A DNA stretch of 64,000 bases from a bacterium (GTDB lineage Bacteria > Hydrothermota > DG-26 > JAUXAN01), in assembly GCA_030619885.1 (NCBI GenBank), contig JAUXAN010000002.1, positions 30,934 to 94,933 of the forward strand. The letters are read 5' to 3'. A program made the position numbers and the translations under genes. A model generated the notes under the pieces. The model worked only from the letters and a program-made list of their open reading frames with translations, searched no databases and was not told the origin of the DNA. Below, piece by piece: positions 1 to 18,718 of the stretch. Every line of letters begins with the position of its first letter. Within the stretch, counting starts at the first letter, position 1.

Positions 1-676
1 AGTAAATCTTTGGTATCACAACAGTATTATCATCCTTGAAATTTTTTCTGGATCTTTCAATATTCTTTCCCTCATTTATAAAATTGAGTTCAGCGGTCAA
101 TATCTTCCTTATCTCATCAGCCTTTCCTGTGAGATCGTAGTCTTTAAGTTCGGGTATTCTTGTTTCTGCTATCTTTGCCAAATCTGATAATATTTCAAGG
201 TCTGTTCTTATTACCTTTCTAATTTTCGGACGCTGAACCTTCACTGCAACTTTATGACCATCTATGGTTGCACGATGGACCTGTGCCAGAGAGGCAGAAG
301 CGATTGGTCTTTCTTGGAAAGAAGAGAAATGTTTTGATATTGGTTCTTTCAACTCATCCTCTATGGTCTGTTTTATTATGGAAAAGGGGAGAGGAGAGAC
401 CTCATCTTGAAGTTTACTCAATTCAACGATATAACTTTGTGGGAGAAGGTCCGGTCTCACACTCAAGAACTGGCCGAGTTTCACGAATGTTGGTCCGAGT
501 CCTTCGAGTGCCAATCTCAGTCGGTGTTCAATACCACTTTTTTGCAGTCTCTTTTTTTTAAAGGAAAATTTGAAAGCGAGCCTATCTACTATCCATCCAA
601 AACCATATTTTGCAAAGACAGTAAATATCTGGTGGGTTCTCTTAATATTTCTATACCGCCCGTAGAGATTCAACAT
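1..676 (-). CDS. UbiB/ABC1 atypical kinase family protein, N-terminal part; gene runs off the window start (partial)
   Basis: Own minus-strand translation from ATG at 674-676: MLNLYGRYRNIKRTHQIFTVFAKYGFGW...FSSFQERPIASASLAQVHRATIDGHKVAVKVQRP, hallmark ABC1/UbiB motifs; no stop before position 1, so absent from the ORF track. Confidence 0.7.
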   Translation of the reverse strand, partial: MLNLYGRYRNIKRTHQIFTVFAKYGFGWIVDRLAFKFSFKKKRLQKSGIEHRLRLALEGLGPTFVKLGQFLSVRPDLLPQSYIVELSKLQDEVSPLPFSIIKQTIEDELKEPISKHFSSFQERPIASASLAQVHRATIDGHKVAVKVQRPKIRKVIRTDLEILSDLAKIAETRIPELKDYDLTGKADEIRKILTAELNFINEGKNIERSRKNFKDDNTVVIPKIY

Positions 677-710
677 TGGTTAAGAGAAACGGTTGCAAGC
701 GAGGGAGAGA

Positions 711-736
711 GATAGGGGAACAGCCTTAAGGCTGTT
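711..736 (-). terminator. Perfect 11-bp-stem hairpin GGGGAACAGCC-TTAA-GGCTGTTCCCC downstream of the phasin-like/rSAM operon
   Basis: Seen in sequence, 11 nt after the stop of the 747..1019 gene; the 3' flank on the minus strand is U/C-rich rather than a clean U-run. Confidence 0.45.
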
Positions 737-746
737 CCCCTACCAC

Positions 747-1019
747 TTATTTGAGTTTCTTTGCTATCTGATCAAGTTTCTTTTTGATCTCTTCTATATC
801 AGAGCGGGTTGGTAGATTCACTCTGTTGATAGCGCGTTCGATCGCATCGATTATTCTACGATCCACTTCCTCACCTCGCTCGATCAACTCCTTTACAAAA
901 CCGGGCGCTTCTTCCCTTGATATCTCTCCCTTCTTTACCAGATCGTCGACGAACTTTTTGGTCTTCTCTTTTGTCAGCGCTATTGCCCCGATGCTTGCTA
1001 AAATAGCCTTCTTAATCAT
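747..1019 (-). CDS. Phasin-like (PHA-granule-associated protein family), charged coiled-coil protein, 90 aa
   Basis: MIKKAILASIGAIALTKEKTKKFVDDLVKKGEISREEA... resembles the widespread small phasin/TIGR01837-like proteins of anaerobes; its start overlaps the stop of the upstream rSAM gene by 8 nt. Confidence 0.5.
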   Translation of the reverse strand: MIKKAILASIGAIALTKEKTKKFVDDLVKKGEISREEAPGFVKELIERGEEVDRRIIDAIERAINRVNLPTRSDIEEIKKKLDQIAKKLK

Positions 1020-2415
1020 ACTTTCCCTCCTTGAACTGGAGAGTCCATCTTTTCAGCCTATTCTTCCAGACAGGATCGCTCAAATACTCCTCTTTCCAAA
1101 CTCTATCGGCTATCTTACCATAACTTTCAGTATATCTGTCCACCTTGGAAGCAAGGGTGGTTATCAATTTCTCCGCACCTTCATGTGTAGGATGGGCGCC
1201 GGTCTCTGCAACAATATCTCTTAAGAGTTGTGGATTATCCACTAATATGCACGGTCTGAGATGGTTCTCATTGAATGGCTGTTTTTTCTGGATAAATTTA
1301 AAGAAGGAAGAGGCGAGTATTTCGCACAGAGATTTCTCTTTTATATTATCTACGGCGAAATGGCAGAATACACAGGGTTCAACATCTCCATTGGGAATGA
1401 TGTGAAGGTATTCTCTCCCAGCTGAGATGCATCCTCCAACCCAAGGGCCATCGTTCCAGAAATCTCCGATAAAGATGGGCTTATTATTACGCGCATACTC
1501 GACCCATTTTCTCAATCCATCCCTCTGTTCTGGTGTCATCATCGCTTCCACACTCGGTTTCTTGCCAACAGGAACATACATAAAATACCACCCGAATGAA
1601 GCGCCTTTTTCTATCATCTTGTTGATAAAGTCTTCACTGGTTAAGTCATCAACATTATACTTCCCGACCGTTGCAGAGAAACCGAAAATCACACCCTTTT
1701 TATTCAGATTGTCCATTGCGTTCATAATCTTTTGATATACACCCTTACCTCTTCTTCTATCCGTATCCTCTTCTGCACCCTCTATACTTATTGCAGGGAC
1801 TGCGTTGCCCACTTCGGCTAATTTATTCGCAACCCTCGCATCTATGAATGTCCCGTTAGTATATATCTGGAAAGCCATATCGAGATGGTTATTCAAGATG
1901 TCAAACAGGTGGGGCCAGAGAAATGGCTCCCCGCCGGAAATCGTTATAAAATGAATGCCTAACTCTTTTGCTTCGGTGATGATGCGGTTCATCAAATCGA
2001 AGCTCATGCCATCTTTTTTTGAATAATCTCCGGCATAGCAACCCTTACATCTCAAATTACATCTCATACTTGGAGATATGACCAGCAAGAAGGGGATATG
2101 GAACCCATTATTCTGGTTATGCAATCTTCCCCTCACCTCTGAACATTTCATCCCACCTATGAAGAAGTTGACGAGAAATCTATCTCTGCAGTTTGGATTT
2201 ACACCTTTTGAGAGTCTTTTGATGAGTTCAAGTTGAGGATGACCGGTTTGGACTTTCTGTCGAAGGTCTTTCATCATCTCCCGTTGTCGACCAGAAAGGG
2301 CCACCTTACTTGCGATCGAGAAACTCCTTTTTAAACCTTTCATAGAACCATTAGCGAAGTCTGACACCGCCTTCTGCAGTAGCCTCTTTACCAAGAACCC
2401 CTTAATTGGATTCAT
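1012..2415 (-). CDS. Radical SAM protein with C-terminal SPASM-like Cys-rich domain
   Basis: CNLRCKGCY = CX3CX2C radical-SAM motif; C-terminal GGCISAGREYLHIIPNGDVEPCVFCH auxiliary-cluster motif; ~110-aa N-terminal extension. Confidence 0.75.
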   Translation of the reverse strand: MNPIKGFLVKRLLQKAVSDFANGSMKGLKRSFSIASKVALSGRQREMMKDLRQKVQTGHPQLELIKRLSKGVNPNCRDRFLVNFFIGGMKCSEVRGRLHNQNNGFHIPFLLVISPSMRCNLRCKGCYAGDYSKKDGMSFDLMNRIITEAKELGIHFITISGGEPFLWPHLFDILNNHLDMAFQIYTNGTFIDARVANKLAEVGNAVPAISIEGAEEDTDRRRGKGVYQKIMNAMDNLNKKGVIFGFSATVGKYNVDDLTSEDFINKMIEKGASFGWYFMYVPVGKKPSVEAMMTPEQRDGLRKWVEYARNNKPIFIGDFWNDGPWVGGCISAGREYLHIIPNGDVEPCVFCHFAVDNIKEKSLCEILASSFFKFIQKKQPFNENHLRPCILVDNPQLLRDIVAETGAHPTHEGAEKLITTLASKVDRYTESYGKIADRVWKEEYLSDPVWKNRLKRWTLQFKEGKYD

Positions 2416-2461
2416 CTTTTAACACCTCCTTTCTTTAGATTTTTTAAAAAAACAACATATT

Positions 2462-2496
2462 TTAATTTATATTATAAAAGAGACAAAAGATGTCAA
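2462..2496 (-). promoter_or_regulatory. Sigma70-like promoter (TTGACA -35 on minus strand at 2491-2496) for the rSAM/phasin operon
   Basis: Plus strand reads tgtcaagtaaaaaa; reverse complement gives T-rich UP element plus TTGACA, with an AT-rich -10 about 17 nt downstream. Confidence 0.4.
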
Positions 2497-2777
2497 GTAA
2501 AAAACAAAACCAAAAGGATAATGAACCAGATTCAGCATTTCCTACATTATCCTTAAGTAGACACTGATTTACGCAGAAGAACTACATTAGTGAGAATAAA
2601 AGCACCAATGACCAACCACCAATGACTTGCAATGTATATCTGTCCATTCCATACGGTCACAGACCCGTATGGGATGCTGCGCAACGGATCCTGAGATGGT
2701 AATCAGTGTCTGAATTACAATTTATTTTTTTATGAGAACTTTTTTATATTGTTCGTGTGATTCGTGGGTTCTTTTTT

Positions 2778-2806
2778 CTTGACTTTTGCACATTTTCTTT
2801 TAAAAT
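2778..2806 (+). promoter_or_regulatory. Sigma70-like promoter TTGACT-N17-TAAAAT immediately upstream of the rmlD-like ATG (near-leaderless)
   Basis: ttttttcTTGACTtttgcacattttctttTAAAATcgctttaATG; the -10 ends 7 nt before the ATG at 2814. Confidence 0.45.
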
Positions 2807-2813
2807 CGCTTTA

Positions 2814-3680
2814 ATGAAAATTGCCGTAGTTGGCGCAGATGGGCAACTTGGAAGTGATATTGTCAGAACACTGAAAGATGAGGAGATTGTTCCTTTGGCT
2901 ATTCAGGATATGGATATAACAGATTTTGAATCCGTCAACCGAACTCTTGGAAAAATTTCCCCTGCACTGATTATCAATACAGCTGCTTTTACTAATGTAA
3001 AAGAATGCGAGAAAAATGACAGAGAGGCTTATGAGGTGAATGGTATAGGTGCTAAAAATTTAGCTATCGTATGTAAGAGACTGCATAATACCCTTTTCCA
3101 TATAAGCACAGACTATGTCTTCGATGGTGAAAAGGGGAGTCCATATATAGAAACGGACATACCTCGCCCATTGAATGTATATGGGCTGTCCAAATTGGCA
3201 GGAGAGTATTATATCAGATACATTCTTGAAAATTATTTTATAGTCAGAACATCGGGATTGTATGGTATCCATACCTGTATTGGTAAGGGAGGTAATTTCA
3301 TTGACACAATGGTGCGTTTTTCAAAGGAGAAGGACGAAATAAAGGTGGTGGACGATGAAGTTCTTACCCCTACATATACATTAGACTTATCGCAACAGAT
3401 TAAAGCACTGATAAAGACGAACTTTTATGGAATATACCATATAACGAATGAGGGTGAATGTTCGTGGTATGAATTTGCGAAAGCGATTTTCACATTTTTG
3501 GACTTTAATGTAAATTTGAAAAGGGTTAACTCGAAAGAATTCCCATCTTCGGTGAGAAGGCCGAGATACTCTGTATTGGAGAACAGGGCGTTAAAAAAAT
3601 TAAAGTTGAACAGAATGCGACCGTGGCAGGGAGCACTCAAAGATTATATAGAGGAACGTAAAGAAAAGGGAATGGTATGA
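2814..3680 (+). CDS. rmlD: dTDP-4-dehydrorhamnose reductase-like NAD(P)-dependent sugar reductase
   Basis: MKIAVVGADGQLGSDIV Rossmann N-terminus, STDYVFDG and YGLSKLAGE motifs typical of RmlD/RfbD; start set at the internal ATG 2814 rather than the ORF-track start 2757, which overlaps the promoter. Confidence 0.7.
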   Translation: MKIAVVGADGQLGSDIVRTLKDEEIVPLAIQDMDITDFESVNRTLGKISPALIINTAAFTNVKECEKNDREAYEVNGIGAKNLAIVCKRLHNTLFHISTDYVFDGEKGSPYIETDIPRPLNVYGLSKLAGEYYIRYILENYFIVRTSGLYGIHTCIGKGGNFIDTMVRFSKEKDEIKVVDDEVLTPTYTLDLSQQIKALIKTNFYGIYHITNEGECSWYEFAKAIFTFLDFNVNLKRVNSKEFPSSVRRPRYSVLENRALKKLKLNRMRPWQGALKDYIEERKEKGMV

Positions 3681-4150
3681 GAAATAAGATTAAAAAGATT
3701 ATGCAAGAGACAAAGGAGGTAAGGCTGACATACCTTTTTGGCTCCCGAGTGGGTGGTAAAACCGGACCTTTGAGTGATTATGACATCGGGGTAGTGGTAG
3801 ATAGGAAAGTGCTATACGATTTCAAATACAGACTTGCCAGCGAATTACGCCAAGCATTGAACACTGAAAGGGTTGATGTTGTGATTTTAAATTTTGCCCC
3901 CATTGAACTGGTGTATAATGTCATAGCGGCGGGAAAATTAGTTTATGAGAAAAGTGTTTATGAGAGAGTTGAATTTGAGGCAATTACTTTAAGCAAATAT
4001 TTTGACTACCTTCCTGTCTTGAGAAAACAGAGGAAAGAAATATTGGAGGAAACAAATTATGAAAGAGGAATTCAGCGGCATAGAGAGGCATTTAGAAAAA
4101 CTGAAGGAATGCTTGCTGAACTTAGAGCCGCTCAAAAGAAAAAGGTTTGA
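3677..4150 (+). CDS. Minimal nucleotidyltransferase (MntA-like antitoxin/AMPylase) of a HEPN-MNT pair
   Basis: LFGSRVGGKTGPLSDYDIGVVV = GS-X9-DxD pol-beta nucleotidyltransferase motif. Confidence 0.65.
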   Translation: MRNKIKKIMQETKEVRLTYLFGSRVGGKTGPLSDYDIGVVVDRKVLYDFKYRLASELRQALNTERVDVVILNFAPIELVYNVIAAGKLVYEKSVYERVEFEAITLSKYFDYLPVLRKQRKEILEETNYERGIQRHREAFRKTEGMLAELRAAQKKKV

Positions 4151-4397
4151 TGATTTTGTTGATGATGCAAATTTACGAGCCATGACCGAGAGGTGGCTCG
4201 AAATTGCAGCTCAGTGTTGTATTGACATAGCCGGAAGAATAATCTCGTTAGAACAAGCTGAAAAGCCTAAGGATTATAAAGAGGCTATAATGCGATTAGG
4301 AGAGTTGAGAGTAATTCCTATGAGATTTGCCCAAAAATTTGCTCCCATTGCTGGTTTTAGAAATATTCTTGTTTATAATTATCTGGAGATAGGGTAG
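4059..4397 (+). CDS. HEPN/DUF86 (HepT-like) toxin partner of the MNT protein
   Basis: C-terminal RNILVYNY matches the HepT Rx4HxY motif with Y in place of H; overlaps the MNT ORF 3' end in another frame, so one of the two ends is mis-called or the overlap is unusually long. Confidence 0.5.
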   Translation: MKEEFSGIERHLEKLKECLLNLEPLKRKRFDDFVDDANLRAMTERWLEIAAQCCIDIAGRIISLEQAEKPKDYKEAIMRLGELRVIPMRFAQKFAPIAGFRNILVYNYLEIG

Positions 4398-4486
4398 GAA
4401 GAAGTCTACGAAAATCTTCAGAAGATTTCGGATATTTACGAGTTTATGGGGTATGTAAAAGACTGGCTGAAAGAAAGGATTAAAGA

Positions 4487-5692
4487 ATGAAGGTTTTATA
4501 TATAGTAACTGCTTTTGCGAGGTATGAAGGTGATGTAATTACCCCCTGGCTTACTGAAACCATAAAACGACTCAAAAACAACGGAGTAGACATTAGTGTA
4601 TTTGTATCCTCATATAAGGGACTTGGAAATCAAAAAATATCAGGCATAGATGTTAAAAGATTCAGATATTTTTTCAAAAAATGGGAAAATCTGACACATG
4701 AAGAGATGACCGTTGAAAGAATCGAAAGGGAACCGAAATTTCTTATGCTTGTTCCATTTTATATAGTGGGAGGTATGATAAAAATATACCAAATTTGTAA
4801 GAGAGAAAAATTCGAGATAATTCATGTTCATTGGCCATTTCCACATGCCATTTTTGGATGGCTTGGCAAAAAGGTTGGTGGGGTAAAACTTGTATATACC
4901 TTCTATGGAGCAGAGGCGTTGTTGATTACAAAAAAATTAAATTTCTTGCTGAAACCAATGAAATGGGCGTTGCAAAAGGCTGATGATATTATTGCGATCT
5001 CTTCATTCACTGGCAGAGAGATAGAGCAGATTTGCAGTAAGAAAATAAAGGTAATTCCTTGTGGTTCTGGATTTGAGAATATACAACCGAAAAAGAACAC
5101 TAGCGAATCTAACCAAAGAGCAAGGATTCCTAATATCTTGTTTGTAGGCAGACTCGTGGAACGGAAGGGAATAGATTACTTGATAAAAGCTATCTCTATG
5201 GTTCGTAAAGAGAGGGAAATTACACTGACGATTGTAGGGGAAGGTGATGAAAGGACTAAACTGGACAAATTGGTTCGTGATCTAAATCTTAAAAATTGCG
5301 TGGAATTTACAGGATTTGTCTCACATGAGGAACTGGACCCATATTTTCGACGATGTGCACTCTTTGTACTGCCTGCTATTGTTGATTCAAGAGGAGATAC
5401 TGAAGGTCTTGGGATAGTACTTCTGGAAGCAATGAGTTACCAACGACCCGTTATCGCCTCAAATGTTGGGGGCATTGTCGATATTGTAAAAGGCGAAAAA
5501 ACAGGGATGTTGGTGCAAGAGAAAAACCCAAAGGAGTTGGCAGATGCCATAGTGAAGATTCTTTCTGATAGATCTCTTGCGAACAGACTTGCAAAAGCTG
5601 GGAATGAGTTCGTCAAAAATAGATTTAACTGGAATGCTACAATTGATGAATTGGTTAAAGTATACAAAAACCTGGTGAAGGAGTTAAGATGA
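4487..5692 (+). CDS. Glycosyltransferase family 4 (GT-B, retaining)
   Basis: EGLGIVLLEAMSYQRPVIASNVGGIVDIVKGEKTGMLV = GT4 E-X7-E region. Confidence 0.75.
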   Translation: MKVLYIVTAFARYEGDVITPWLTETIKRLKNNGVDISVFVSSYKGLGNQKISGIDVKRFRYFFKKWENLTHEEMTVERIEREPKFLMLVPFYIVGGMIKIYQICKREKFEIIHVHWPFPHAIFGWLGKKVGGVKLVYTFYGAEALLITKKLNFLLKPMKWALQKADDIIAISSFTGREIEQICSKKIKVIPCGSGFENIQPKKNTSESNQRARIPNILFVGRLVERKGIDYLIKAISMVRKEREITLTIVGEGDERTKLDKLVRDLNLKNCVEFTGFVSHEELDPYFRRCALFVLPAIVDSRGDTEGLGIVLLEAMSYQRPVIASNVGGIVDIVKGEKTGMLVQEKNPKELADAIVKILSDRSLANRLAKAGNEFVKNRFNWNATIDELVKVYKNLVKELR

Positions 5693-6729
5693 AGATATTA
5701 GTTACTGGAGGAGCTGGTTTTATTGGCTCACACATAGCGGAGTACTATTCAAAGAGAGGGGAGGAGGTAATAGTTTACGACAATCTATCACGTGCTGAAA
5801 TATTAGGAAAAGAGATGAAGAACATTACCTACATTTGGGATTATCTTCGAGAAAAACATCCTGGTATTACACTCCTAAAATACGATATAAGAGATCTTGA
5901 GAGATTGAGAGAAACGGTTGAAGGTGTGGATGTAATATTCCATACAGCTGCTCAAACAGCTGTTACCACATCAGTAATTGACCCACAAATCGATTTCTCG
6001 GTCAATGTTGAGGGAACTTTCAATGTTTTGCAAGTAGCAAGAGAGTCTAAAAAGAAACCCGCGATTATTTTCTGCTCTACCAATAAGGTTTACGGCGATA
6101 ATGTCAACTCAATCAGAGTTATTGAAGAAGAAAAACATTATAGGTTTGAAGATAAGTATGATAAAGGCGTTCCAGAAAATTTTCCTATAGATTTATGTGA
6201 GCATACACCTTATGGGTGTTCTAAATTGACAGGCGACATCTACACGCAAGATTACGGTCATCTATATGGATTAAAGATTGGGGTTTTCAGGATGAGTTGT
6301 ATTTATGGGGAGAAACAGTTTGGAGTGGAAGACCAGGGATGGGTTGCACATTTTGTTATCTCTACCTTATTAGGCAGACCGATAACCATTTACGGTGATG
6401 GAAAGCAGGTTCGTGATGTCTTATATGTTACTGACTTGATAGAGGCTTATGACAGGTTCTTGACGAGTGACTTGAAACTGGGTGTTTTCAATATTGGAGG
6501 TGGCCATAAGAACAAAATTTCTCTTCTTGAACTTTTGGATATCATAGCAGAGAGCACTGGTAAAAGAAGCGAGATCAGATTTGCTGACTGGCGTCCATCA
6601 GACCAGAAAGTTTATATTTCAAACCTGAGCAGGATTAAGCAACTATTAGGATGGGAACCGAAAACAGATATTAAACTTGGAATCAAAAATCTTATCGATT
6701 GGGTTGTAAAAAATAAGGAAATATTTTAA
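5689..6729 (+). CDS. NAD-dependent sugar epimerase/dehydratase (CDP-paratose-2-epimerase-like SDR)
   Basis: MKILVTGGAGFIGSHI glycine-rich motif, YGCSKLTGD catalytic YxxxK; 4-nt overlap with the upstream GT4. Confidence 0.7.
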   Translation: MKILVTGGAGFIGSHIAEYYSKRGEEVIVYDNLSRAEILGKEMKNITYIWDYLREKHPGITLLKYDIRDLERLRETVEGVDVIFHTAAQTAVTTSVIDPQIDFSVNVEGTFNVLQVARESKKKPAIIFCSTNKVYGDNVNSIRVIEEEKHYRFEDKYDKGVPENFPIDLCEHTPYGCSKLTGDIYTQDYGHLYGLKIGVFRMSCIYGEKQFGVEDQGWVAHFVISTLLGRPITIYGDGKQVRDVLYVTDLIEAYDRFLTSDLKLGVFNIGGGHKNKISLLELLDIIAESTGKRSEIRFADWRPSDQKVYISNLSRIKQLLGWEPKTDIKLGIKNLIDWVVKNKEIF

Positions 6730-6733
6730 AGAT

Positions 6734-7468
6734 GTGAAGCGGTCTGATTTCAAAATGAATAGTACCAAAAGCAGAGATTATTATAATCGACTCTATCATT
6801 TTAAACAAGATGCGAGGTTGCTTGATTTTAAGCGTATGAAGAACTTTCTTTCTGGGCTCAAGATAAAACCAGGTAGCAGGTATCTTGATATAGGATGCGG
6901 TGTGGGAGGTGCCCTTGCAGTGGCTAAAGCCAAAGGGGCAGAGTGTTATGGAATGGATATATCTCTTACTGCGCTGTCAACGGCGAAAGGATTGGTGTCA
7001 AAAGAAATTGACTTGGTGTTAGGTGAGGGAGAATATCTTCCATTTAAGGACGAGGTGTTTGATTATGTTTCTGTCATCGGGTCTCTCGAACATTTCAGAG
7101 ATCCAAAAGCAGGTCTTGAAGAAATAAAAAGAGTCTGCCTCCCGAGTGCGCGTGTGTGTCTTGCGGTTCCCAATTCTTATGGGATACTTAACAAACTAGG
7201 AATTTATCGAGGAACTAACCAACCTCAAGAGATACTGGCTACTCTGAGTGAATGGGTTCGCTATACTAAAGAGAGTGGATATAAAACAATTTCTATAGGG
7301 AGCGATAGAGGTCCTCAGATTCTTAAGAATAAGAAACCTCACAAGATAGTAGAACGTCTCCTGTTGAGATTTACCAAATGTCTCCCTCTTTCTTTTGCTT
7401 ATGTATTTATTTTTATCTGTGAGAAAAAATCGATTTTGCTTAGGAACCACCTTTTAAGAACAAGATGA
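6734..7468 (+). CDS. Class I SAM-dependent methyltransferase (1 of 3 in the glycan locus)
   Basis: LDIGCGVGG motif I. Confidence 0.65.
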   Translation: MKRSDFKMNSTKSRDYYNRLYHFKQDARLLDFKRMKNFLSGLKIKPGSRYLDIGCGVGGALAVAKAKGAECYGMDISLTALSTAKGLVSKEIDLVLGEGEYLPFKDEVFDYVSVIGSLEHFRDPKAGLEEIKRVCLPSARVCLAVPNSYGILNKLGIYRGTNQPQEILATLSEWVRYTKESGYKTISIGSDRGPQILKNKKPHKIVERLLLRFTKCLPLSFAYVFIFICEKKSILLRNHLLRTR

Positions 7469-8295
7469 ACATCGAAATTCAAGTGACTAAAGAAAGAGTG
7501 GGTAAGAAATGGTTGCCCTTTCTTAAGGTCACTGACGGCAAATATGAAATCCTGGGCTTTCCTGCCGATAGAATGCCTCTGATCATGGAACATGTTGCCT
7601 CTTACAAGTTTTTCTTAGAGTATTTAAAAAATAAAACTGTTTTGGACATAGGATGTGGATATGGATACGGTACTTTCCTCCTGTCACTAGTATCTAAAAC
7701 TGTGGTAGGGATAGACCTCTCTTCCGAACGCATAAGAAAAGCCAGAGAAACATATAGAGCTGACAATATCGATTTTCAGGTGATGGATGCCATGTTAATA
7801 GAGAAACATTTTGAACCAAACAATTTTGAGGTGGTAACAGCGATGCAATTTATTGAACATATACCAGAGCCTCAGAACTTTCTTGATAGTGTAAAGACCG
7901 TTCTAACTGAAAGGGGTAGGTTTATTCTGGCTACCCCCAACCGGTTATTTCGTTTAGGCAATAGCAACATTCCATGGAACCCGGAGCATTTTCAGGAATA
8001 TGATGCTAAATCACTTGATCAACTCTTGAGCACTTGCTTTAGGAACATAAATATATATGGAATTTATGGGATTCCAGAAGCTTATGAATGGGAGAGAAGG
8101 AGAATGGGGGGAAACATCTCTCCCAGAATGAAGTCGATTTGGAGATATACACCAGAATGGTTGAAGAAATCACTTCGCAGAGTGGTCAATTTGAACCTGA
8201 AGGAGATAGATGTGACCGTAGATGACTATGTGGTGAAAGATAGTGTAGATTCAAGTAGTTTCTTCTTGCTCGCGAGCTGTACCAAAAGGAGTTAA
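7465..8295 (+). CDS. Class I SAM-dependent methyltransferase (2 of 3)
   Basis: VLDIGCGYGYGT motif I; overlaps the upstream gene by 4 nt. Confidence 0.65.
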   Translation: MNIEIQVTKERVGKKWLPFLKVTDGKYEILGFPADRMPLIMEHVASYKFFLEYLKNKTVLDIGCGYGYGTFLLSLVSKTVVGIDLSSERIRKARETYRADNIDFQVMDAMLIEKHFEPNNFEVVTAMQFIEHIPEPQNFLDSVKTVLTERGRFILATPNRLFRLGNSNIPWNPEHFQEYDAKSLDQLLSTCFRNINIYGIYGIPEAYEWERRRMGGNISPRMKSIWRYTPEWLKKSLRRVVNLNLKEIDVTVDDYVVKDSVDSSSFFLLASCTKRS

Positions 8296-8356
8296 GATTG
8301 TCTATGAAGAGATGAAGACAGCAGTATTTAGGTAGGAAATAAAAGTTGTTATACTT

Positions 8357-9508
8357 ATGAAAGTCCTGGTTTCTATGTACTACTTCAAGCCTCTCAGTTT
8401 GGAGGGTGGAGGAACCTTTATGGATTCTCTTGCAACATCTTTTTGCGATGCTGGGATTGGAACCACTCTTATTGCACCATTAGATTCTGGTGCAAATAAG
8501 CCCTATGAAGTAATCAACTACCTGAAATCAGGATTAGGTGGACCATTTGTAAATTTGAGAAGATACATCAGGACCGTAAAAAAAATTGCAAAAGAGTGTG
8601 ATGCGGTTTATATTCATCAAAATAATCCAGCAGTATCCTTCATCAGTGATGTCGTATATACAGCAAATAAAAATACATTTGTAATCTTTGGTACTCCGTT
8701 GCAGAGATTTTTCATCCATCGGGGAGGTACTTTTACAAAACAACATATTTCTCATTGGCTGGTAAAAAACAAAATGGGAACCTATTTTTCATCCTTTAAG
8801 TGCAGATATTATATAGTTAGCACTCATTTTCAAAAAAGGGAATTACTCTCACTTGATATACCTGAGGAGAAAGTAGTCGTTATCCCATTTGGCATTTCTC
8901 CGAAATATTTTGAGCCTCACAATAAGAAAAAAGCAAGGAGGGAATTTGGACTGAAAGGCGACAAGATTATTTCATATCTTGGACATTTTTCTCCAGTGAA
9001 AGGGGTGCCTGATCTAATTATGTCGTTTAAGAATATAGTTAAGAAAAACGATAATGTTCTCCTTCTTATTGCCCGGAGTGGCAAAGGGAGTGAAACTAAA
9101 AAAGTTTTTAAACTTATCAGAGAGCACGACTTGAACAAAAAGGTAATCATATTGGGAAAAGTGGATGTCAGAAAATTCATTTCTGCTTCAGATGTGATGG
9201 TGTTACCTTACACACATAGTTCAATTCCCCATTTTCCATTGGTGATGATGGAGTCCTTTGCAGTGGGAACCCCAGTGATTTCCACCAATGTTGGAGGGCT
9301 CTCTGAAATGATTGTCAATAATAAGACAGGGATGTTAGTATCACCGAACAGAGTAGACCAATTGACAGGTGCTATTCAGAAGTTATTAGATGATGGAAAT
9401 CTTTATCAAACCATTTCTGAAAATAGTAGAAATGAATTTTTAGAAAAATATAATTCAGATGTAGTAGTAAGGCAATATCTCAAATTATATGAGAAGATTA
9501 AGAGATGA
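8357..9508 (+). CDS. Glycosyltransferase family 4
   Basis: C-terminal MMESFAVGTPVISTNVGGLSEMIVNNKTGMLV GT4 signature. Confidence 0.7.
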   Translation: MKVLVSMYYFKPLSLEGGGTFMDSLATSFCDAGIGTTLIAPLDSGANKPYEVINYLKSGLGGPFVNLRRYIRTVKKIAKECDAVYIHQNNPAVSFISDVVYTANKNTFVIFGTPLQRFFIHRGGTFTKQHISHWLVKNKMGTYFSSFKCRYYIVSTHFQKRELLSLDIPEEKVVVIPFGISPKYFEPHNKKKARREFGLKGDKIISYLGHFSPVKGVPDLIMSFKNIVKKNDNVLLLIARSGKGSETKKVFKLIREHDLNKKVIILGKVDVRKFISASDVMVLPYTHSSIPHFPLVMMESFAVGTPVISTNVGGLSEMIVNNKTGMLVSPNRVDQLTGAIQKLLDDGNLYQTISENSRNEFLEKYNSDVVVRQYLKLYEKIKR

Positions 9509-10209
9509 ATAGAAAGCGTTGGTCAAAAGATAAAAAGCAAGTTTTTGTAGAGAAGGAAAAGATGGATGCCTATGAGCATAAAATGGGCTACTATGCCCGG
9601 ACTATAGACCAGAAAGTTGTCTCCTCATTTTTAGACAATGAGAAAGGCTTTATACTGGATTTGGGGTGCGGTACAGGGAGGTTTACAAGTTTTCTCGAGA
9701 GCAGTGGTGCCAGAGTGATAGGCGCTGACTATTCTCCTGGTATGCTCCATGTTGCTCAAAAGAGAATAAAATCTCCTCTTGTAAGATGCGATGCATTTAA
9801 TCTACCCTTTAAGGATAATGTTTTTGATAATGTGCTCTCTATGCGTCTGATTTTTCACTACTACCGACCGAGAGGAATAGTAGAAGAGGTAAAGAGAGTC
9901 ATGGATGATACTGGAGCATTTGTTTTTGACTCACTGAACAAATATTCTTTAAGGTATTTCTTATATTTTATTCAGCGAGTTTTTCAAAGAAGGGCAGGAA
10001 GACAGATGTGGTATGCCTCAAAAAAGGAAATGCTCGATTTTATAACATCGATTGGACTGGGGATTGAAAAAAGTGAATCAAGATATCTCCTTCCAACTCG
10101 ATTTTATAGATTTCTACCCCATGTATTGATTTTTATTATAGATAAAATAGAACCATTTTGGCCTGCACCCCTGAGACAGATTTCATATTGGAAAACACGA
10201 TGTAAATAA
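9505..10209 (+). CDS. Class I SAM-dependent methyltransferase (3 of 3)
   Basis: LDLGCGTGRFT motif I. Confidence 0.65.
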   Translation: MNRKRWSKDKKQVFVEKEKMDAYEHKMGYYARTIDQKVVSSFLDNEKGFILDLGCGTGRFTSFLESSGARVIGADYSPGMLHVAQKRIKSPLVRCDAFNLPFKDNVFDNVLSMRLIFHYYRPRGIVEEVKRVMDDTGAFVFDSLNKYSLRYFLYFIQRVFQRRAGRQMWYASKKEMLDFITSIGLGIEKSESRYLLPTRFYRFLPHVLIFIIDKIEPFWPAPLRQISYWKTRCK

Positions 10210-10220
10210 GATACACAGAA

Positions 10221-11162
10221 ATGAACCTTAAAAGAAACTATCTTTCAATTGCTATCCTGATCTTTTTCATAGCCTGGTGCGGGATATATGTTAAGAATCA
10301 CATAAATGAATTTAAGATTATTTCCCAGATATCCGTCAAATTTACTCTGATATTGTGTTTGTTATCTCTAACAATCATTTCACTTAGAGGATATTTCACA
10401 AAAATACTGCTTGAACCGTTTAAAATAGACCTGAAATTGAGAGAGTGGTTCGGACTTTCATTTGTGTCAACAATGGGCAATTACCTTGTTCCATTTAGAA
10501 CTGGTGCCGCATTCAGGGCTGTTTACCTTAAAACAAATTATGATTTTTCTTACTCTTCGTTTCTTTCTACAATGGCGGCAACATACATACTCAACTTCTT
10601 TTTTAATTCCATTATTGGTATGGGAAGTATAGTGTTGATTTATGCCAAATACAAAATGTTCAGCATCCCAGTTTTTCTATTCTTCTTAATTGCTTTCCTG
10701 ATTTTGTTAGTGATTATCACCTTTCCACTAAAGGTTTCAAGTAATAGACGGAGGTTCTTAAAGAGCATAAACAACATTATCAACGGATGGTGTCGAATAA
10801 GAACGAATCGATTGCTTATCAGAAATCTCTCATTCTTGCTTCTGCTCAACGCCGTTCTCTTCTTGCTCTCCATCAATTTTGCGTTCAAGGCATTTTCTAT
10901 AAGTCTTCCCTTGATAAAATGTTTGCTGATTTCAGCATTCCACTCCTTCTCGATATTGATAAGTATTACACCAGGTTCTTTAGGTATATCTGAAGGGGTC
11001 ATCGTCTTTACATCCAAATTGTTTGGCATAAGTCCAGTAGAAAGTCTTGTTGTTGCAGGCTTAATTCGGGCTATCACCCTATTCTGGGTTCTTACATTAG
11101 GACCTATATGGAGTTATTTCCTGATTACCCAAAAACGGAGGGATTATGACAAAGAGAACTAA
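10221..11162 (+). CDS. Polytopic membrane protein, lysyl-PG-synthase-TM/flippase-like (UPF0104-type)
   Basis: About 8 predicted TM helices, no soluble domain; this family commonly accompanies glycosyltransferases. Confidence 0.45.
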   Translation: MNLKRNYLSIAILIFFIAWCGIYVKNHINEFKIISQISVKFTLILCLLSLTIISLRGYFTKILLEPFKIDLKLREWFGLSFVSTMGNYLVPFRTGAAFRAVYLKTNYDFSYSSFLSTMAATYILNFFFNSIIGMGSIVLIYAKYKMFSIPVFLFFLIAFLILLVIITFPLKVSSNRRRFLKSINNIINGWCRIRTNRLLIRNLSFLLLLNAVLFLLSINFAFKAFSISLPLIKCLLISAFHSFSILISITPGSLGISEGVIVFTSKLFGISPVESLVVAGLIRAITLFWVLTLGPIWSYFLITQKRRDYDKEN

Positions 11163-13590
11163 GAAGGAACGGAGTAAGATATCTGTCCCAGAGAAGCACG
11201 GCAGATTCTCTGAAAAGAGATTAAATAAAATAGCTATTGGTATTCTATTTATTCTTCCCTTTATATTTTTCTACAGGTTACTTTCTGGAAAGGTGATGAT
11301 GTATGGTTCAGACTGGTTACTTGCTGCGTGCCCTCAGAGGATGTGGATGTCTTCTTATATTGCACAACATGCAAGAATCCCTATGTGGTATCCTTACATT
11401 TACTCTGGCCGTCCAAGCGTTGCTAACTTCTTCGGTGATGCCTTCTATCCAACCGCTCTCTTCCGCCTCTTTATTCCAATACATATTGTATGGACATACG
11501 CCTTTGTCTTTCATATATTTCTTGCTGGCTTAGGAGCATATCTTTTCTTAAGGGAATTGAAACTCTCTGTCTATCCCTCGCTTCTTGCTGGGATGGTCTA
11601 TATGTTTGCTGGTGATGTTATATCTACAACTTATGCAGGGCACGATGGAAAACTTATATGCGCTGCACTCTTTCCCTTTGCCTTACTTTTTCTGCATAAA
11701 GGGTTAAAAACACATAGGCTTCCCTATTTTCTCTTTATGGGCAGCATTTTTGGTCTCTCTCTTCTCTCAGGTCACTTCCAAAAGGCATATTATTCGCTGG
11801 TTTTATCAGCCTTTTATCTTCTCTGTTATCTCATCTGGGAAAGGAAAAAAAATAAATTGGGAGGTAGTATTAAACTTGTACTATTCTATGGATTGGGTAT
11901 CTTATTTATGGTCTGCCTGGTCGCAGTCCAATATCTTCCAGTGTACGGGAGCCTGCCTTACGGTGCAAGAGGTGAAACAAGAGGATATGAGTATGCAACC
12001 TCATGGTCTATGCCAACTGCCGAATTTTTGAACCTGTTAACTCCACATTTCTCCGGGATATTGAATAACTATTGGGGTGAGAGTTATTTCAAGTTACATA
12101 GTGAATACCTGGGTATTCTTTCTCTACTTCTTATGGGGATAGCAGTAGCATATAAGAGAAGGGACAGGTATGTAAAATTTTTCATATGGCTTGGTGTGGT
12201 CACAACGATAATGGCTCTTGGAGGCTATACGCCCTTATATAAGATACCCTACTATCTCCTTCCAGGGTTAAAGAAATTCAGGTGTCCATCACAGATATTC
12301 TATCTTGTCTCTTTTGCTGTTGCCATTCTTGCAGGATTTGGAATACAATCGATACTAAACAAAAGACGAAAGGCAAAAGACGAAAGACAAAAGTCTTATA
12401 CCCGGCTTGCAATTGGGTTGGGAATAGTATTTGGCATTGTAGTCATATTCAGCCTCCTATGTTCTCTTGGAAAGGATTTTATGCTTGGCTCTTTAAAATC
12501 CCATTTCCAGTCGAGCCTCACTCAACAGAAAGTAAATAATCTCTACAAAAATTATCCCTATTTTCTTAAGGGACTTGGGATAGCACTATTTTTGATACTG
12601 ATAAATTCAGGCTTAATTCTTCTATTGGCTATGAAGAGATTGAAAGCGGGTATCTGGGCATTGATTGCCCTTCCAATTCTCATTTTTGATGTATGGATTA
12701 TTGAGTTGCGATTTGTAAGAACTGTCCCGGTGCCCCCAAAATACTATGCACGAGACGATGTTGTAACTTTCCTGAAGAATGATAGAACCCTGTACAGGGT
12801 ATTCCCACTTTATTACGAACACACAAACGATGGATTTCTTGGCTATCATAGTATCCAGAGTGCGGGTGGGGTCACTGCAAATCCTCTTGCAAGATACCAG
12901 AAGTTTATAGGTACCGGAGGAAGTGTTATGTTCAATCCACGGAATTTAATAAAGTATAAGAAGTTTTTAAATCTCTTGAACATAAAGTATATAATAAGTA
13001 TCCAACTTCCAGAGGATGTTTCAAGATATGATAAGAGAACTCAAGAGATGATAAGGAATCTCAAGGATTACCTCAAGGATTTTAAACTTGTTTATAGAGG
13101 GAAGCATACAATTTATGAGAATGAAGATTTTCTTCCAAGGGCATTTCTTGTTCCAGATTTTGAAGTATATCCCAAGGAAGAGGTATTGAATAGGATGAAA
13201 GATTTCGATCCAAGAACTACAGTAATCCTTGAGGAATCACCAGAGGTCTCACATCCAGAATCACTCATAAATTCTGGGACTGTGAATATAATAAGTTATG
13301 ATGCAAATAGGATTGTGTGTGAAGCAAATATGATAGTGCCAGGTTTTCTCGTTTTGAGTGAGAACTATCATCCTGCGTGGAAGTGTTGGGTTGATGGAAA
13401 AAGGAGTAAAATCTACTGTGCAAACTACACTTTCAGGGCTGTATGGTTGCCACCGGGTGTGCATAAAGTGGAATTCGTATACGATTCTATCTATTTCAAA
13501 CTTGGGGCTATAATGAGCTCACTCTCAATTTTATTCCTTATAGGTGTTATAATATGGCATATAAGATTGCGACGTATACGCCATGTCTAA
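11146..13590 (+). CDS. Large polytopic membrane protein (814 aa), YfhO/GT-C-like putative glycan transferase or polymerase
   Basis: More than 10 N-terminal TM helices followed by a ~250-aa extracytoplasmic C-terminal domain and a final TM; family assignment is by architecture only. Confidence 0.4.
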   Translation: MTKRTKKERSKISVPEKHGRFSEKRLNKIAIGILFILPFIFFYRLLSGKVMMYGSDWLLAACPQRMWMSSYIAQHARIPMWYPYIYSGRPSVANFFGDAFYPTALFRLFIPIHIVWTYAFVFHIFLAGLGAYLFLRELKLSVYPSLLAGMVYMFAGDVISTTYAGHDGKLICAALFPFALLFLHKGLKTHRLPYFLFMGSIFGLSLLSGHFQKAYYSLVLSAFYLLCYLIWERKKNKLGGSIKLVLFYGLGILFMVCLVAVQYLPVYGSLPYGARGETRGYEYATSWSMPTAEFLNLLTPHFSGILNNYWGESYFKLHSEYLGILSLLLMGIAVAYKRRDRYVKFFIWLGVVTTIMALGGYTPLYKIPYYLLPGLKKFRCPSQIFYLVSFAVAILAGFGIQSILNKRRKAKDERQKSYTRLAIGLGIVFGIVVIFSLLCSLGKDFMLGSLKSHFQSSLTQQKVNNLYKNYPYFLKGLGIALFLILINSGLILLLAMKRLKAGIWALIALPILIFDVWIIELRFVRTVPVPPKYYARDDVVTFLKNDRTLYRVFPLYYEHTNDGFLGYHSIQSAGGVTANPLARYQKFIGTGGSVMFNPRNLIKYKKFLNLLNIKYIISIQLPEDVSRYDKRTQEMIRNLKDYLKDFKLVYRGKHTIYENEDFLPRAFLVPDFEVYPKEEVLNRMKDFDPRTTVILEESPEVSHPESLINSGTVNIISYDANRIVCEANMIVPGFLVLSENYHPAWKCWVDGKRSKIYCANYTFRAVWLPPGVHKVEFVYDSIYFKLGAIMSSLSILFLIGVIIWHIRLRRIRHV

Positions 13591-13596
13591 ATATAG

Positions 13597-13704
13597 GGGA
13601 CGCAGATTTTCAGGATTCAAAAATTAGAAGATTAAAGATTGAAAAGAATTTGCAATCTCCAAATCTTTCAATTATCTGCGTTTATCCGCGTGTATCTGCG
13701 TCCC
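13597..13704. repeat. TIR-flanked short element copy 1 with three phased 9-mers TTATCTGCG/TTATCCGCG/GTATCTGCG at 10-bp period
   Basis: GGGGACGCAGAT at 13597-13607 and its inverse ATCTGCGTCCC at the right end; boxes at 13672-13680, 13682-13690 and 13692-13700; an AT-rich run follows. Confidence 0.6.
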
Positions 13705-13746
13705 ATTTAAATGTTTTTTTAATAAAAATCCTGTTAATCCTGTCAA

Positions 13747-15288
13747 ATGAATAGAATCAAGACCGAAATAGGAGGGTATAGGAAAAGAAGGGGAAATACC
13801 TCTTTCTGTCTCGTCTATCCCAATATCTACGAAGTTGGAATTGCCAATTTAGGTTTTCAACAGGTGTATAAACTCTTGAATCAGATAGAGGGTGTCTATT
13901 GTGAAAGGGGATTCTATTGTGAAGGTCCATTTAAATCTTTTGAGAGCAGTAGAAAATTGAGTGATTTCTCAATTATCGGATTCTCATTCCCTTACGAGTT
14001 AGATTATATGAATTTCTTTAAAATTCTAAAACACTCTAAAATTCCCATATTTTCAAAAGACCGTGGTCCCCGTTTCCCACCAATAATCGCAGGTGGTGTC
14101 TCCGTTTCAGCCAATCCGACCGTACTCGCCCCATTTGTAGACCTCTTCGTAATAGGAGAAGCAGAAGAAATCTTAGGTGAAATCGTAAAAGTCTTCATCA
14201 ATAATAAAAAGAAGCAGAATTTTCTTAAAGCAGTCTCTGAAATTGAAGGGGTCTATGTCCCTGAACTTGGAAGGGGGAGGATAGAGAGAAGATGGGTCTC
14301 CGATCTGAATAGATTCCCTACCTCATCCTGTATAATTTCCCCCCACTCGCATTTCAAAAATATGTATCTTGTAGAACTTGAAAGAGGGTGTCCGTATAGG
14401 TGCAGATTCTGTATGGGGGGATATTTTCACAACCCTTACAGGGTGAGAGACCACAGAAAGTTGATTGAACATATCAAGACAGATAGGCTGCCAAAGAAAT
14501 CTATCGGGCTCATTGGTGCTGCGATTTCAGAATTCCCACACCTTGAAGAGACAATCCGTGAGCTCTCACCACTTACCAATACTATCCATATCTCATCTTT
14601 AAGGCTCGACAGGGTGAGCAAAAAGTTGGTATCGTTGTTGGTCAAAAAGGGCTTGAAACAACTAACGATTGCACCAGAAACAGGAGGGGAGAGGTTAAGA
14701 AATATCATAGGGAAGAATATAGAAGATGAGAAGATACTTGAGGTTGTCTCATATTGCAGTTCCGCAGGTGCTGAGGGGATCAAACTCTATTTTATGATAG
14801 GGCTCCCTTTTGAGACCGATGATGATGTATTTAAAATTGGAGAACTGATTAAGGAGATTAGAAGAATATATAATAGAAGGATTACAGTTAGCATAAACCC
14901 TTTTGTCCCAAAACCTCACACACCATTTCAGCACCACAATATGGAGGGAAGGGAGAATTTGAGAAGGAAGATGAGATTGGTCGAAAATTCGTTAAAAGTC
15001 GTAGACCCGTATGGGGGGATGAAGGGAATAAAGGTGATCAAAAAGGGAATAAGGGAAGCGATACTTCAGTCAATAGTCTCGAGGGGCGATGAAAAGATCG
15101 GAACTGCATTAGGCAACAGTATTTTAAGGGGTTCACCAGTGCAAAGAATTTTTTTGGAAGAGGGGATAGATACCGATTTTTACACAGGCACAAGGGAAGA
15201 AGTAACTTTCCCATGGGATTTTATACACTCAAAAATTGACAGGAAGGGTCTTTACACTGAATATAGAAGAGCGAAAGAATCTATTTAG
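13747..15288 (+). CDS. Radical SAM protein with N-terminal B12-binding-like domain (TIGR03960-like family)
   Basis: [24 protein letters not shown]-terminus; [13 protein letters not shown]3CX2C motif. Confidence 0.65.
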
Positions 15289-15472
15289 CCTTTTTCACTG
15301 CCCCTGAACGGAGGCATCTTGTGCACACATAAATTTTTTTAACTTTGCCATCTATAACTGCCCTTACCCTTTGAAGATTGGGCTGCCATTTTTTCTTCGT
15401 TACATTATGGGCATGACTCACCGAATGTCCAAATTGTCCTATCTTACCGCAGATCACACATTTTCTTGCCAT
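15281..15472 (-). CDS. rpmB: 50S ribosomal protein L28
   Basis: [57 protein letters not shown], classic L28; start placed at the internal ATG preceded by GGAGG; -35 TTGACA on the minus strand at 15517-15522. Confidence 0.9.
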
Positions 15473-15529
15473 AGTTCCTCCATTATTAATCCCCATGTTA
15501 CATATAATCTAAAACTTGTCAACTTAATA

Positions 15530-15731
15530 GGGACGCAGATTTCCGCAGATAAACGCAGATAATTCAAAGATATAATTCACTTATAGTCACTCGTTTACGT
15601 TAATCGGTTACGATGCTCGTTTTGTCCTTTGGTGACGGAGTCCGCACATCCGTAACCTTTAACCGCGCCACGATACGGGCTTCGTTACCGTTAAACTTTT
15701 ATCGATTCCGAATCTATGTGTATCTGCGTCC
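15530..15731. repeat. TIR-flanked element copy 2 (about 200 bp, GC-richer, internally self-complementary) with three phased boxes AAATCTGCG/TTATCTGCG/TTATCTGCG on the minus strand
   Basis: GGACGCAGATttccGCAGATaaacGCAGATaatt at 15531-15563; inverse GTATCTGCGTCC at 15720-15731; internal GGTTACG/CGTAACC pairings. Confidence 0.6.
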
Positions 15732-15762
15732 TTATTTTTAAAATGACTCACATATTACCTAC

Positions 15763-17710: not shown

Positions 17711-17730
17711 CCTAATGCACCGAACGGAGT

Positions 17731-18705: not shown

Positions 18706-18718
18706 CTTTTCAAGTAAC

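Follow-up and report, generated by a model that had tools for sequence, protein, structure and literature searches.

On the forward strand of a 64-kb window of contig JAUXAN010000002.1, the whole stretch of DNA analysed here, 11 co-directional open reading frames (ORFs; positions 2814-13590) combine sugar-nucleotide enzymes, glycosyltransferases and three methyltransferases with a flippase-like membrane protein and a YfhO-type GT-C glycosyltransferase. In its host, an uncultured WOR-3 bacterium, the cluster is plausibly an envelope-glycan locus that makes a methylated sugar structure. Its three central genes, encoding a methyltransferase (MTb), a GT4 glycosyltransferase (GT4b) and a further methyltransferase (MTc), form an interchangeable decoration cassette, which in a sister strain gives way to a phosphonate cassette. 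The flippase-like/YfhO pair recurs in dozens of related genomes as the core of the system. From these observations, we consider it moderately probable (roughly 0.6) that the locus produces a small, methylated saccharide, linked to a lipid and destined for the cell envelope of its diderm host, and that this product varies between strains in a serotype-like manner. According to the ORF listing and profile searches, the cluster consists of the following genes:

2814-3680, + strand: rmlD, dTDP-4-dehydrorhamnose reductase (TIGR01214, 308 bits against a cut-off of 224; PF04321, 291 bits)
3677-4150, + strand: mntA, nucleotidyltransferase antitoxin of a type VII pair (NF047752, 82.8 bits against a cut-off of 60; PF18765)
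4059-4397, + strand: hepT, RNase toxin of the type VII pair (NF047751, 85.1 bits against a cut-off of 60; PF01934)
4487-5692, + strand: GT4a, retaining GT-B glycosyltransferase (PF00534, PF13439, PF13692)
5689-6729, + strand: extended short-chain dehydrogenase/reductase (SDR), a nucleotide-sugar epimerase similar to CDP-tyvelose 2-epimerase (epimerase/dehydratase families)
6734-7468, + strand: MTa, class-I S-adenosylmethionine (SAM) methyltransferase (PF08241, 70 bits)
7465-8295, + strand: MTb, class-I SAM methyltransferase, first gene of the cassette (PF13847, 76.6 bits)
8357-9508, + strand: GT4b, second GT4 glycosyltransferase, centre of the cassette (PF00534, 129 bits)
9505-10209, + strand: MTc, class-I SAM methyltransferase (PF08241, 79.7 bits)
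10221-11162, + strand: flippase-like membrane protein of 313 amino acids, stand-alone MprF-type (UPF0104 / PplT / LPG_synthase_TM; PF03706, 108.9 bits against 33.4; TIGR00374, 57.9 against 43.2)
11146-13590, + strand: YfhO-type GT-C membrane glycosyltransferase of 814 amino acids (PF09586, 57 bits against a cut-off of 28.5)

An earlier, sequence-only reading of this stretch had named nine of these genes, all of which are present in the place and on the strand given. It had overlooked the MntA/HepT pair, which raises the count to 11, and it lacked both the phylum-wide flippase-like/YfhO core and the allelic replacement of the cassette. It had also described the genes as co-directional, which they are, and as joined by 4-nt overlaps, which holds at four junctions (rmlD/mntA, GT4a/SDR, MTa/MTb and GT4b/MTc); the flippase-like and YfhO genes overlap by 17 nt, and the remaining gaps measure 4, 11, 61 and 89 nt, the largest being the 89 nt before GT4a and the 61 nt before GT4b.

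Two alleles of the central cassette

The swap emerges from comparison with the ENA contig L086, which encodes the closest relative of the flippase-like protein (P0122, 80% identical) after the window's own allele (P0121, 98%). On either side of the swapped segment, the gene order of L086 is the same as that of the window. By blastn, window positions 182-7427 correspond to L086 1-7227 and positions 10220-21193 to L086 10000-20955, with nothing aligned between. In a 300-nt sliding comparison, the distant flanks of the two contigs are 98-99.7% identical, and two segments depart from this backbone:

7428-10219: allele-specific cassette, comprising the last 41 nt of MTa, MTb, GT4b and MTc, with no homology to the matching 2.77 kb of L086
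6782-12019: diverged allelic block, comprising MTa, the cassette, the flippase-like gene and about the first 290 YfhO codons, 75-88% identical to L086

Around the cassette, MTa is 75-79% identical in nucleotide and 74% in amino-acid sequence, and the flippase-like gene 78-88% and 80%, respectively. The first 900 or so nucleotides of the YfhO gene are 80-84% identical and identity returns to 92-99% past position 12020, while RmlD shares 97% of its amino acids with the L086 copy. The two YfhO alleles differ at 75 amino acids, 52 of them within the N-terminal 250 residues, and differences are clustered at residues 58-76 beside the aspartate D56. This N-terminal divergence may reflect co-adaptation of the enzyme to the cassette product.

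In L086, the cassette site is occupied by a CDP-alcohol phosphotransferase-family protein, a fusion of phosphoenolpyruvate (PEP) mutase and nucleotidyltransferase, and a fragment of phosphonopyruvate decarboxylase (Ppd). The fusion protein is a true PEP mutase (Ppm; TIGR02320, 398 bits against a cut-off of 319.6) with a fused NTP_transferase domain, and such Ppm-nucleotidyltransferase fusions are a hallmark of cell-surface phosphonate tailoring (PMC6697681). The decarboxylase fragment, an ORF of 99 amino acids at the right-hand junction (L086 9700-9999), covers only the first 50 or so Ppd residues (TIGR03297 positions 2-53 of 360). The phosphonate cassette of L086 looks truncated, and its phosphonate output would depend on what other genes that genome encodes.

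Both alleles occur in one JGI (Joint Genome Institute) metagenome, Ga0114921, in which contig L089 is 99.8% identical to L086 and contig L090 98.7% identical to window positions 9338-10696. The strain variability that the sequence-only reading had proposed to look for is thus present as a clear allele swap.

The flippase-like/YfhO core and its accessory enzymes

Both membrane proteins of the core had been recognized from the sequence, one as flippase-like and the other as GT-C/YfhO-like, and both descriptions are borne out by profile scores above cut-off and by structural models. The PF09586 match of the 814-residue protein comes in two stretches, the best one being C-terminal. By sequence, the protein has no match in the PDB at E<=1, and a fold search was used instead. 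Its AlphaFold2 model (predicted local distance difference test (pLDDT) 77, predicted TM-score (pTM) 0.79) has an N-terminal multi-helix membrane domain and a C-terminal beta-rich domain, called periplasmic, and retrieves AftD, STT3/PglB and ArnT in Foldseek (probability 1.0, E 4e-7 to 1e-3, TM-score about 0.35-0.5). Judged from this model, the fold is that of a GT-C enzyme. D56, invariant in 15 homologs, follows directly after the first membrane helix (residues 23-41 in the model), which would place it on the extracytoplasmic side of the membrane. Homologs with 40-54% identity, which carry the name YfhO family in the database, are found throughout WOR-3, their named sources being almost all candidate division WOR-3 or plain 'bacterium'.

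The profile of the flippase-like subfamily likewise found no meaningful match among PDB sequences, and the fold search gave MprF: in Foldseek, the AlphaFold2 model (pLDDT 87) has MprF as its only confident PDB matches, with TM-scores of 0.59-0.63 over about 300 residues of the flippase domain. On the strength of this model, we assign the MprF flippase fold to the 313-residue protein. Its subfamily is rare, with 28 matches in the database. Another, distant member of this subfamily (40% identity) closes a complete phosphonate cassette on a Tara marine contig (L088 2254-8918), which consists of a B12 radical SAM gene, a CDP-alcohol phosphotransferase, a cytidylyltransferase-PEP mutase fusion, a thiamine pyrophosphate (TPP) decarboxylase and an Fe-alcohol dehydrogenase, with a PMT_2 GT-C gene nearby.

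A scan with the YfhO-like protein, limited to one genome per species, returned 80 loci, almost all of them from metagenome-assembled genomes (MAGs) of WOR-3, TA06, Stahlbacteria, Edwardsbacteria, Zixibacteria, Cloacimonadota, Gemmatimonadota and Fibrobacterota. Searches for the YfhO partners by tblastn or phmmer with the window's flippase-like protein missed most of them, because that protein shares just 12-24% identity with its counterparts beside other YfhO homologs; Pfam searches of the upstream ORFs and iterated local hidden Markov models (HMMs) were needed. According to Pfam, the ORF directly upstream of the YfhO homolog is an LPG_synthase_TM protein in 36 of 55 scorable loci. In one locus (L001), a Wzx flippase sits in this slot, which supports a translocase role for the flippase-like protein. 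Downstream of the YfhO homologs, a GT2 was found in 9 of 50 cases and a second GT-C (PMT_2) in 7 of 50.

We then counted neighbors with the iterated HMMs in a local census of 81 non-redundant loci, in which flippase-like genes (49/81), GT4 (28/81), class-I methyltransferases (20/81), GT2 (16/81), PMT_2 (8/81), SDR (8/81) and Wzx (2/81) were detected near YfhO, all of these counts being lower bounds, given the crude ORF and HMM detection and the partly truncated contigs. Orthologs of GT4a (43-51% identity) lie about 2 kb upstream of YfhO in at least 12 loci (L004, L015, L019, L020, L024, L025, L028, L034, L041, L073, L074 and L079), and a common compact layout is GT4a-ortholog, flippase-like, YfhO, PMT_2. 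The neighbor counts thus indicate that the conserved core is the flippase-like/YfhO pair, often accompanied by GT4a, and the sugar-nucleotide enzymes and methyltransferases are variable accessories of it. Methyltransferase genes are present singly in 19 of the loci and as two in 1, and none has three; the window is the richest in methyltransferases among the loci examined. Within this family, three methyltransferases are therefore as unusual as the sequence-only reading had supposed.

MTa, MTb and MTc share 28-32% pairwise identity over about 110-125 residues of the SAM-binding core and are therefore three different enzymes and not recent duplicates, again as first described. Their best NCBIfam matches, all below threshold, are models of the UbiE/MenG/UbiG/BioC type, none of them near its cut-off. 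Their PDB matches span the SAM-binding core alone, with D-glucose O-methyltransferase (26-31 bits) scoring not above unrelated methyltransferases. The HMM check proposed earlier thus reaches no ubiquinone or menaquinone model and assigns no sugar methyltransferase either; it is the gene context that makes a sugar substrate plausible.

This context is most telling for MTc. Its 4-nt overlap with GT4b suggests translational coupling, and the pairing is conserved in three distant loci, which is the best evidence at hand that MTc methylates a sugar handled by GT4b. The GT4b family is rare (12 database proteins at E<=1e-30), and L122/L123 has a GT4b ortholog (54%) that overlaps a downstream MTc ortholog (51%) by the same 4 nt, with a flippase-like gene (47%) next in line. 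The same overlap joins the GT4b (44%) and MTc (42%) orthologs of L124, which belong to a polysaccharide cluster that also encodes Wzx, UDP-glucose dehydrogenases and a DegT aminotransferase. Orthologs of MTa (42-46% identity) are found directly upstream of flippase-YfhO in L046 and L048, and orthologs of MTb (44-45% identity) near YfhO in L009 and L063. The L122/L123 segment has a further feature: at about 2191-14966, an SDR-SDR-GT2-MT-GT4b-MTc-flippase-like block lies between two DDE transposase genes together with HicAB and PIN toxin-antitoxin genes, which suggests that the block is able to move as a unit.

The SDR has full-length PDB matches (9rl0_E, 259 bits; 1orr, 216 bits), with CDP-tyvelose 2-epimerase as the closest enzyme, and scores below the RmlB and GalE cut-offs. 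Its orthologs (64-66% identity) occur in GT4-SDR-SDR-flippase modules of L091, L092, L106, L120 and L121.

These findings bear on a skeptical explanation of the cluster, that it is a chance juxtaposition of separate units in which the methyltransferases, and perhaps the radical SAM genes on either side, are unrelated neighbors acting on quinones, lipids or small molecules. The top sub-threshold NCBIfam matches are indeed to models of that type, and the substrate of the methyltransferases is unreadable from their sequences. However, those models are nowhere near their cut-offs and the matches are restricted to the SAM-binding core; moreover, 4-nt overlaps join MTa to MTb and GT4b to MTc, orthologs of each methyltransferase stand beside flippase-like/YfhO or GT4b genes in distant genomes, MTb and MTc have been exchanged en bloc with GT4b, and the radical SAM genes behave differently from the cluster, as described below. 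We regard this explanation as barely credible.

Neighboring and inserted genes

The cluster is flanked by two radical SAM genes:

1012-2415, - strand: radical SAM protein of the rSAM-SPASM type, reaching no curated cut-off or equivalog
13747-15288, + strand: B12-type radical SAM protein, TIGR03960-like, below the cut-off

The sequence-only reading had noted these genes as flanking the cluster. They are real, and no link to the cluster is detectable: both lie in the 98-99% identical backbone, outside the block that varies between the window and L086, and neither is present beside the YfhO homologs of the 81 other loci. Since they never accompany YfhO there, they are not part of the system, and we rejected them as cluster members.

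Between the rSAM-SPASM gene and rmlD, a divergent intergenic region of 400 bp (2416-2813) shows the lowest conservation within the left flank (92-96% identical to L086) and has no Rfam match. The rSAM-SPASM protein and a second radical SAM protein at 17944-18705 give weak viperin-like matches (NF038283, 35 bits against 180; PADLOC pVip, 59 bits); these reflect the radical SAM core only and are no evidence for an antiviral function. The B12-type gene and an adjacent short region are bracketed by a 48-nt inverted repeat with 85% complementarity (13663-13710 / 15524-15571). In each arm, the octamer ATCTGCGT occurs in copies at a spacing of 10 nt, with further sites at 13600-13607 and 15722-15729. 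Of the seven copies in the window, six fall within these two intergenic regions, where 0.9 would be expected by chance. The repeat, which may be an operator or another regulatory repeat, is also conserved in L086, where the adjacent short region holds rpmB.

Inside the cluster, the mntA and hepT ORFs (3677-4397), both above their equivalog cut-offs, overlap by 92 nt and lie between rmlD and GT4a. The pair is present in both alleles, with hepT intact in each, and MNT or HepT genes are also found near the YfhO loci L001, L018 and L022. A reading of the cluster as anti-phage defence, prompted by a GT4-conflict Pfam match together with this toxin-antitoxin pair, was rejected, as PADLOC gave weak generic-domain matches alone. 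Likewise rejected was a hopanoid cluster (HpnA/HpnJ/HpnL), for which the scores are far below the cut-offs.

The rest of the window is of a housekeeping nature (lpxB, rho, a PEP-utilising enzyme, che genes, plsY and gpsA). Rfam and tRNA scans of the whole window gave no match. The presence of lpxB indicates a diderm host that contains lipid A.

Proposed pathway and related systems

If the locus builds a methylated lipid-linked saccharide, its gene products can be arranged in a pathway that spans the membrane. Going by their families, RmlD and the CDP-tyvelose-2-epimerase-like SDR would supply unusual nucleotide sugars, a 6-deoxyhexose and a C2-epimerised sugar, respectively, from which GT4a and GT4b would add sugars to a membrane-lipid acceptor on the cytoplasmic face. 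MTa, MTb and MTc would O-methylate the product, with MTc predicted to act together with GT4b in view of their conserved gene pairing, rather than of homology. By analogy with MprF, GpgF and HexF, the MprF-type protein, whose family and fold are as described above, would then bring the completed lipid-linked unit across to the periplasmic leaflet. Finally, the YfhO-type enzyme, with its GT-C fold and conserved aspartate, would carry out a periplasmic glycosyl transfer involving that unit.

As the anchor of the saccharide, we slightly favor a membrane glycolipid or lipoglycan primer that might be extended or decorated by the GT-C enzyme, and rank an undecaprenyl-diphosphate (Und-PP) repeat unit second. 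The preference draws on known relatives of the flippase-like protein: MprF is a broad lipid scramblase (PMC11980842), and the characterized systems with stand-alone MprF-like flippases, GpgSDF (PMC12713373) and HexSDF (PMC10128005), make glycolipids. A glycolipid is also slightly favored by the window itself, in which no initiating transferase was found, and by the CDP-alcohol phosphotransferase of L086, which is of the lipid-headgroup type.

Several observations weigh against the proposed pathway. The second-ranked polyprenyl anchor would agree with the use of C55-P-sugars by characterized YfhO enzymes, with the Wzx of L001 and with the GT4b-MTc pair in a Wzx cluster. In the characterized cases, the C55-P-sugar comes from a GT2 and is translocated by a GtrA-type protein (PMC8035078, PMC5836110), and no GT2 or GtrA-type gene is present within 2814-13590. 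GT4a reaches no NCBIfam equivalog, and against the GpgS model (NF053787, cut-off 480) GT4a scores 66.5 and GT4b 66.3 bits, so that neither is a GpgS ortholog. None of the three methyltransferases reaches a curated NCBIfam cut-off, and their substrate is not assignable by homology. The diverged block in YfhO may merely mark the recombination tract, which is equally likely as co-adaptation. The census that defines the core shares the crudeness of its detection. As for the unity of the cluster, a single operon would be suggested by gene spacing alone; scans for consensus promoters and terminators gave the same counts as shuffled sequence, with no convincing terminator within the cluster, and the toxin-antitoxin pair and the 89-nt gap before GT4a could split rmlD from the remaining genes. 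The deoxy-sugar proposed in the sequence-only reading would follow from rmlD, which scores above its equivalog cut-off, and finds no further backing in the window, where rmlD is the sole rml gene and rmlA, rmlB and rmlC are not among the ORFs.

The polyprenyl anchor leads to the most serious alternative, which we consider improbable: that the locus follows O-antigen or S-layer-glycan logic, with an Und-PP-linked methylated rhamnose-containing unit that is built by the GT4 enzymes, flipped in a Wzx-like manner and then polymerised, or transferred to lipid A-core or protein, by the YfhO-like GT-C. The combination of rmlD, two GT4s, an epimerase and methyltransferases is typical O-antigen content, LpxB is present, and cassette swaps between conserved flanks are typical of O-antigen and capsule loci. 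Furthermore, a true Wzx takes the flippase-like slot upstream of YfhO in L001, the GT4b-MTc pair of L124 resides in a Wzx-type cluster, and GT-C enzymes include oligosaccharyltransferases, with STT3/PglB among the fold matches. However, the annotated ORFs of the window include no initiating phosphoglycosyltransferase, Wzx, Wzy, Wzz, ligase (WaaL) or ABC exporter, which may be encoded elsewhere in the genome, and the label of a lipopolysaccharide O-antigen, one of the products first considered, finds no support here. In addition, the characterized or proposed substrates of MprF-type proteins are glycerolipids and not Und-PP-glycans, namely lysyl-phosphatidylglycerol for MprF and, as proposed, glucosaminyl (GlcN)-phosphatidylglycerol for GpgF and a hexosyl glycolipid for HexF (PMC12713373, PMC10128005, PMC11980842), and the alternative allele carries its lipid-headgroup-type phosphotransferase.

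The characterized YfhO proteins suggest another alternative, a strict three-component decoration system, in which one GT4 replaces the GT2 and makes a polyprenyl-phosphate mono- or disaccharide that is methylated, flipped and used by YfhO as donor for a pre-existing envelope polymer. These proteins do operate in this way (PMC8035078, PMC5836110), a small GT2 or a PMT_2 GT-C adjoins YfhO in other WOR-3 loci, and the allele-linked divergence is focused in the YfhO N-terminus beside D56, where GT-C enzymes bind lipid-linked donors. Nevertheless, two GT4s and three methyltransferases exceed the needs of a single-sugar decoration, the cluster has no GT2, and the only GT2 of the window lies 24 kb off and is similar to glucosyl-3-phosphoglycerate synthase. 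Moreover, no GT4 is known to make polyprenyl-phosphate sugars. We therefore judge such a system to be highly improbable.

Returning to the methylated lipid-linked saccharide, a more far-reaching version can be put forward, tentatively and with more doubt than confidence. The combination of GT4, MprF-type flippase-like protein and YfhO GT-C would constitute an uncharacterized envelope glycolipid or lipoglycan pathway of WOR-3 and neighboring phyla of the Fibrobacteres-Chlorobi-Bacteroidetes (FCB) group. Coexisting strains would diversify its product by swapping O-methyl-sugar against phosphonate cassettes, and the flippase-like protein and the donor-binding N-terminus of the GT-C would co-evolve with the cassette, in a serotype-like variation plausibly driven by phages or grazers.

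We know of no experimental work on the cell envelope of WOR-3 and related uncultured phyla, and the pairing of an MprF-type protein with a YfhO-type GT-C in dozens of genomes makes it a candidate for a lineage-wide pathway, which would extend the stand-alone MprF-like 'flippases' beyond the two characterized glycolipid systems. Likewise, two alleles in a 98-99.7% identical backbone and in the same metagenome amount to a natural experiment on the micro-diversity of surface structures in an uncultured organism. If the product is an ordinary O-antigen unit, the finding shrinks to one more variable polysaccharide locus. Either GT4b-MTc-flippase or the full set from GT4a to YfhO is small enough for heterologous expression and lipidomics, as with gpgSDF.

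Among known systems, CsbB/GtcA/YfhO of Firmicutes (PMC8035078, PMC5836110) shares with the locus a YfhO-family GT-C, a dedicated lipid translocase and one or more cytoplasmic glycosyltransferases, and with them the implied split between cytoplasmic synthesis and extracytoplasmic transfer. Here, however, the host is a diderm WOR-3 bacterium and not a Firmicute, the translocase is of the MprF type (UPF0104) instead of GtrA/GtcA, and GT4 enzymes (GT-B, retaining) stand in for the GT2; there are extra nucleotide-sugar enzymes and three methyltransferases, and the acceptor cannot be a teichoic acid.

GpgSDF, which makes GlcN-phosphatidylglycerol in P. aeruginosa (PMC12713373), and HexSDF, which makes aminohexosyl-hexosyl-diradylglycerol in C. 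difficile (PMC10128005), have in common with the locus a glycosyltransferase, a head-group modifier and a stand-alone MprF-like flippase, the translocation activity of GpgF and HexF being itself unproven. GpgS is a GT4, and the GT4b-MTc-flippase sub-module mirrors the order synthase-modifier-flippase. In contrast to both systems, the modifier here is a methyltransferase, with no deacetylase in the cluster, and neither Gpg nor Hex has the two glycosyltransferases, the sugar-nucleotide enzymes or the downstream GT-C found here.

The same predicted association of an MprF-type protein with a GT-C and a cytoplasmic glycosyltransferase is seen in archaeal UPF0104 (arCOG00899) neighborhoods, with PMT/STT3-like enzymes and AglD-like glycosyltransferases (PMC5898192), and a survey of the PplT family describes fusions of the MprF-type domain to GT-A, GT-B and methyltransferase domains (bioRxiv 10.1101/2022.03.11.483950). 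Those associations, all of them predictions, are archaeal or consist of domain fusions; the pair described here is bacterial, phylum-wide, unfused and specific to YfhO.

Like O-antigen and capsule loci, the locus has had a central block exchanged while its flanks stayed near-identical, and the divergence reaches into the flanking genes; the Ppm-nucleotidyltransferase fusion of the L086 allele is shared with phosphonoglycan and phosphonolipid tailoring clusters (PMC6697681). Unlike in those loci, there is no Wzx/Wzy/Wzz, ABC exporter or initiating transferase in the window, the swap exchanges a methyl-sugar for a chemically unrelated phosphonate cassette, and the Ppd of L086 is truncated.

Finally, in the synthesis of mycobacterial phosphatidylinositol mannosides, lipomannan and lipoarabinomannan (PIM/LM/LAM), GT4 enzymes prime, at the cytoplasmic face, a membrane glycolipid, which is flipped and then extended by GT-C enzymes. 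Several sugar O-methyltransferases within one cluster are likewise found in methylated glycolipid clusters, for example in the rhamnose O-methyltransferases of glycopeptidolipids (GPL). In both cases the likeness is one of logic alone, with no sequence orthology and with a different phylum and lipid chemistry. Seen against these systems, the locus is a variant of a known multi-component logic of transmembrane glycosylation and glycolipid synthesis rather than a new category.

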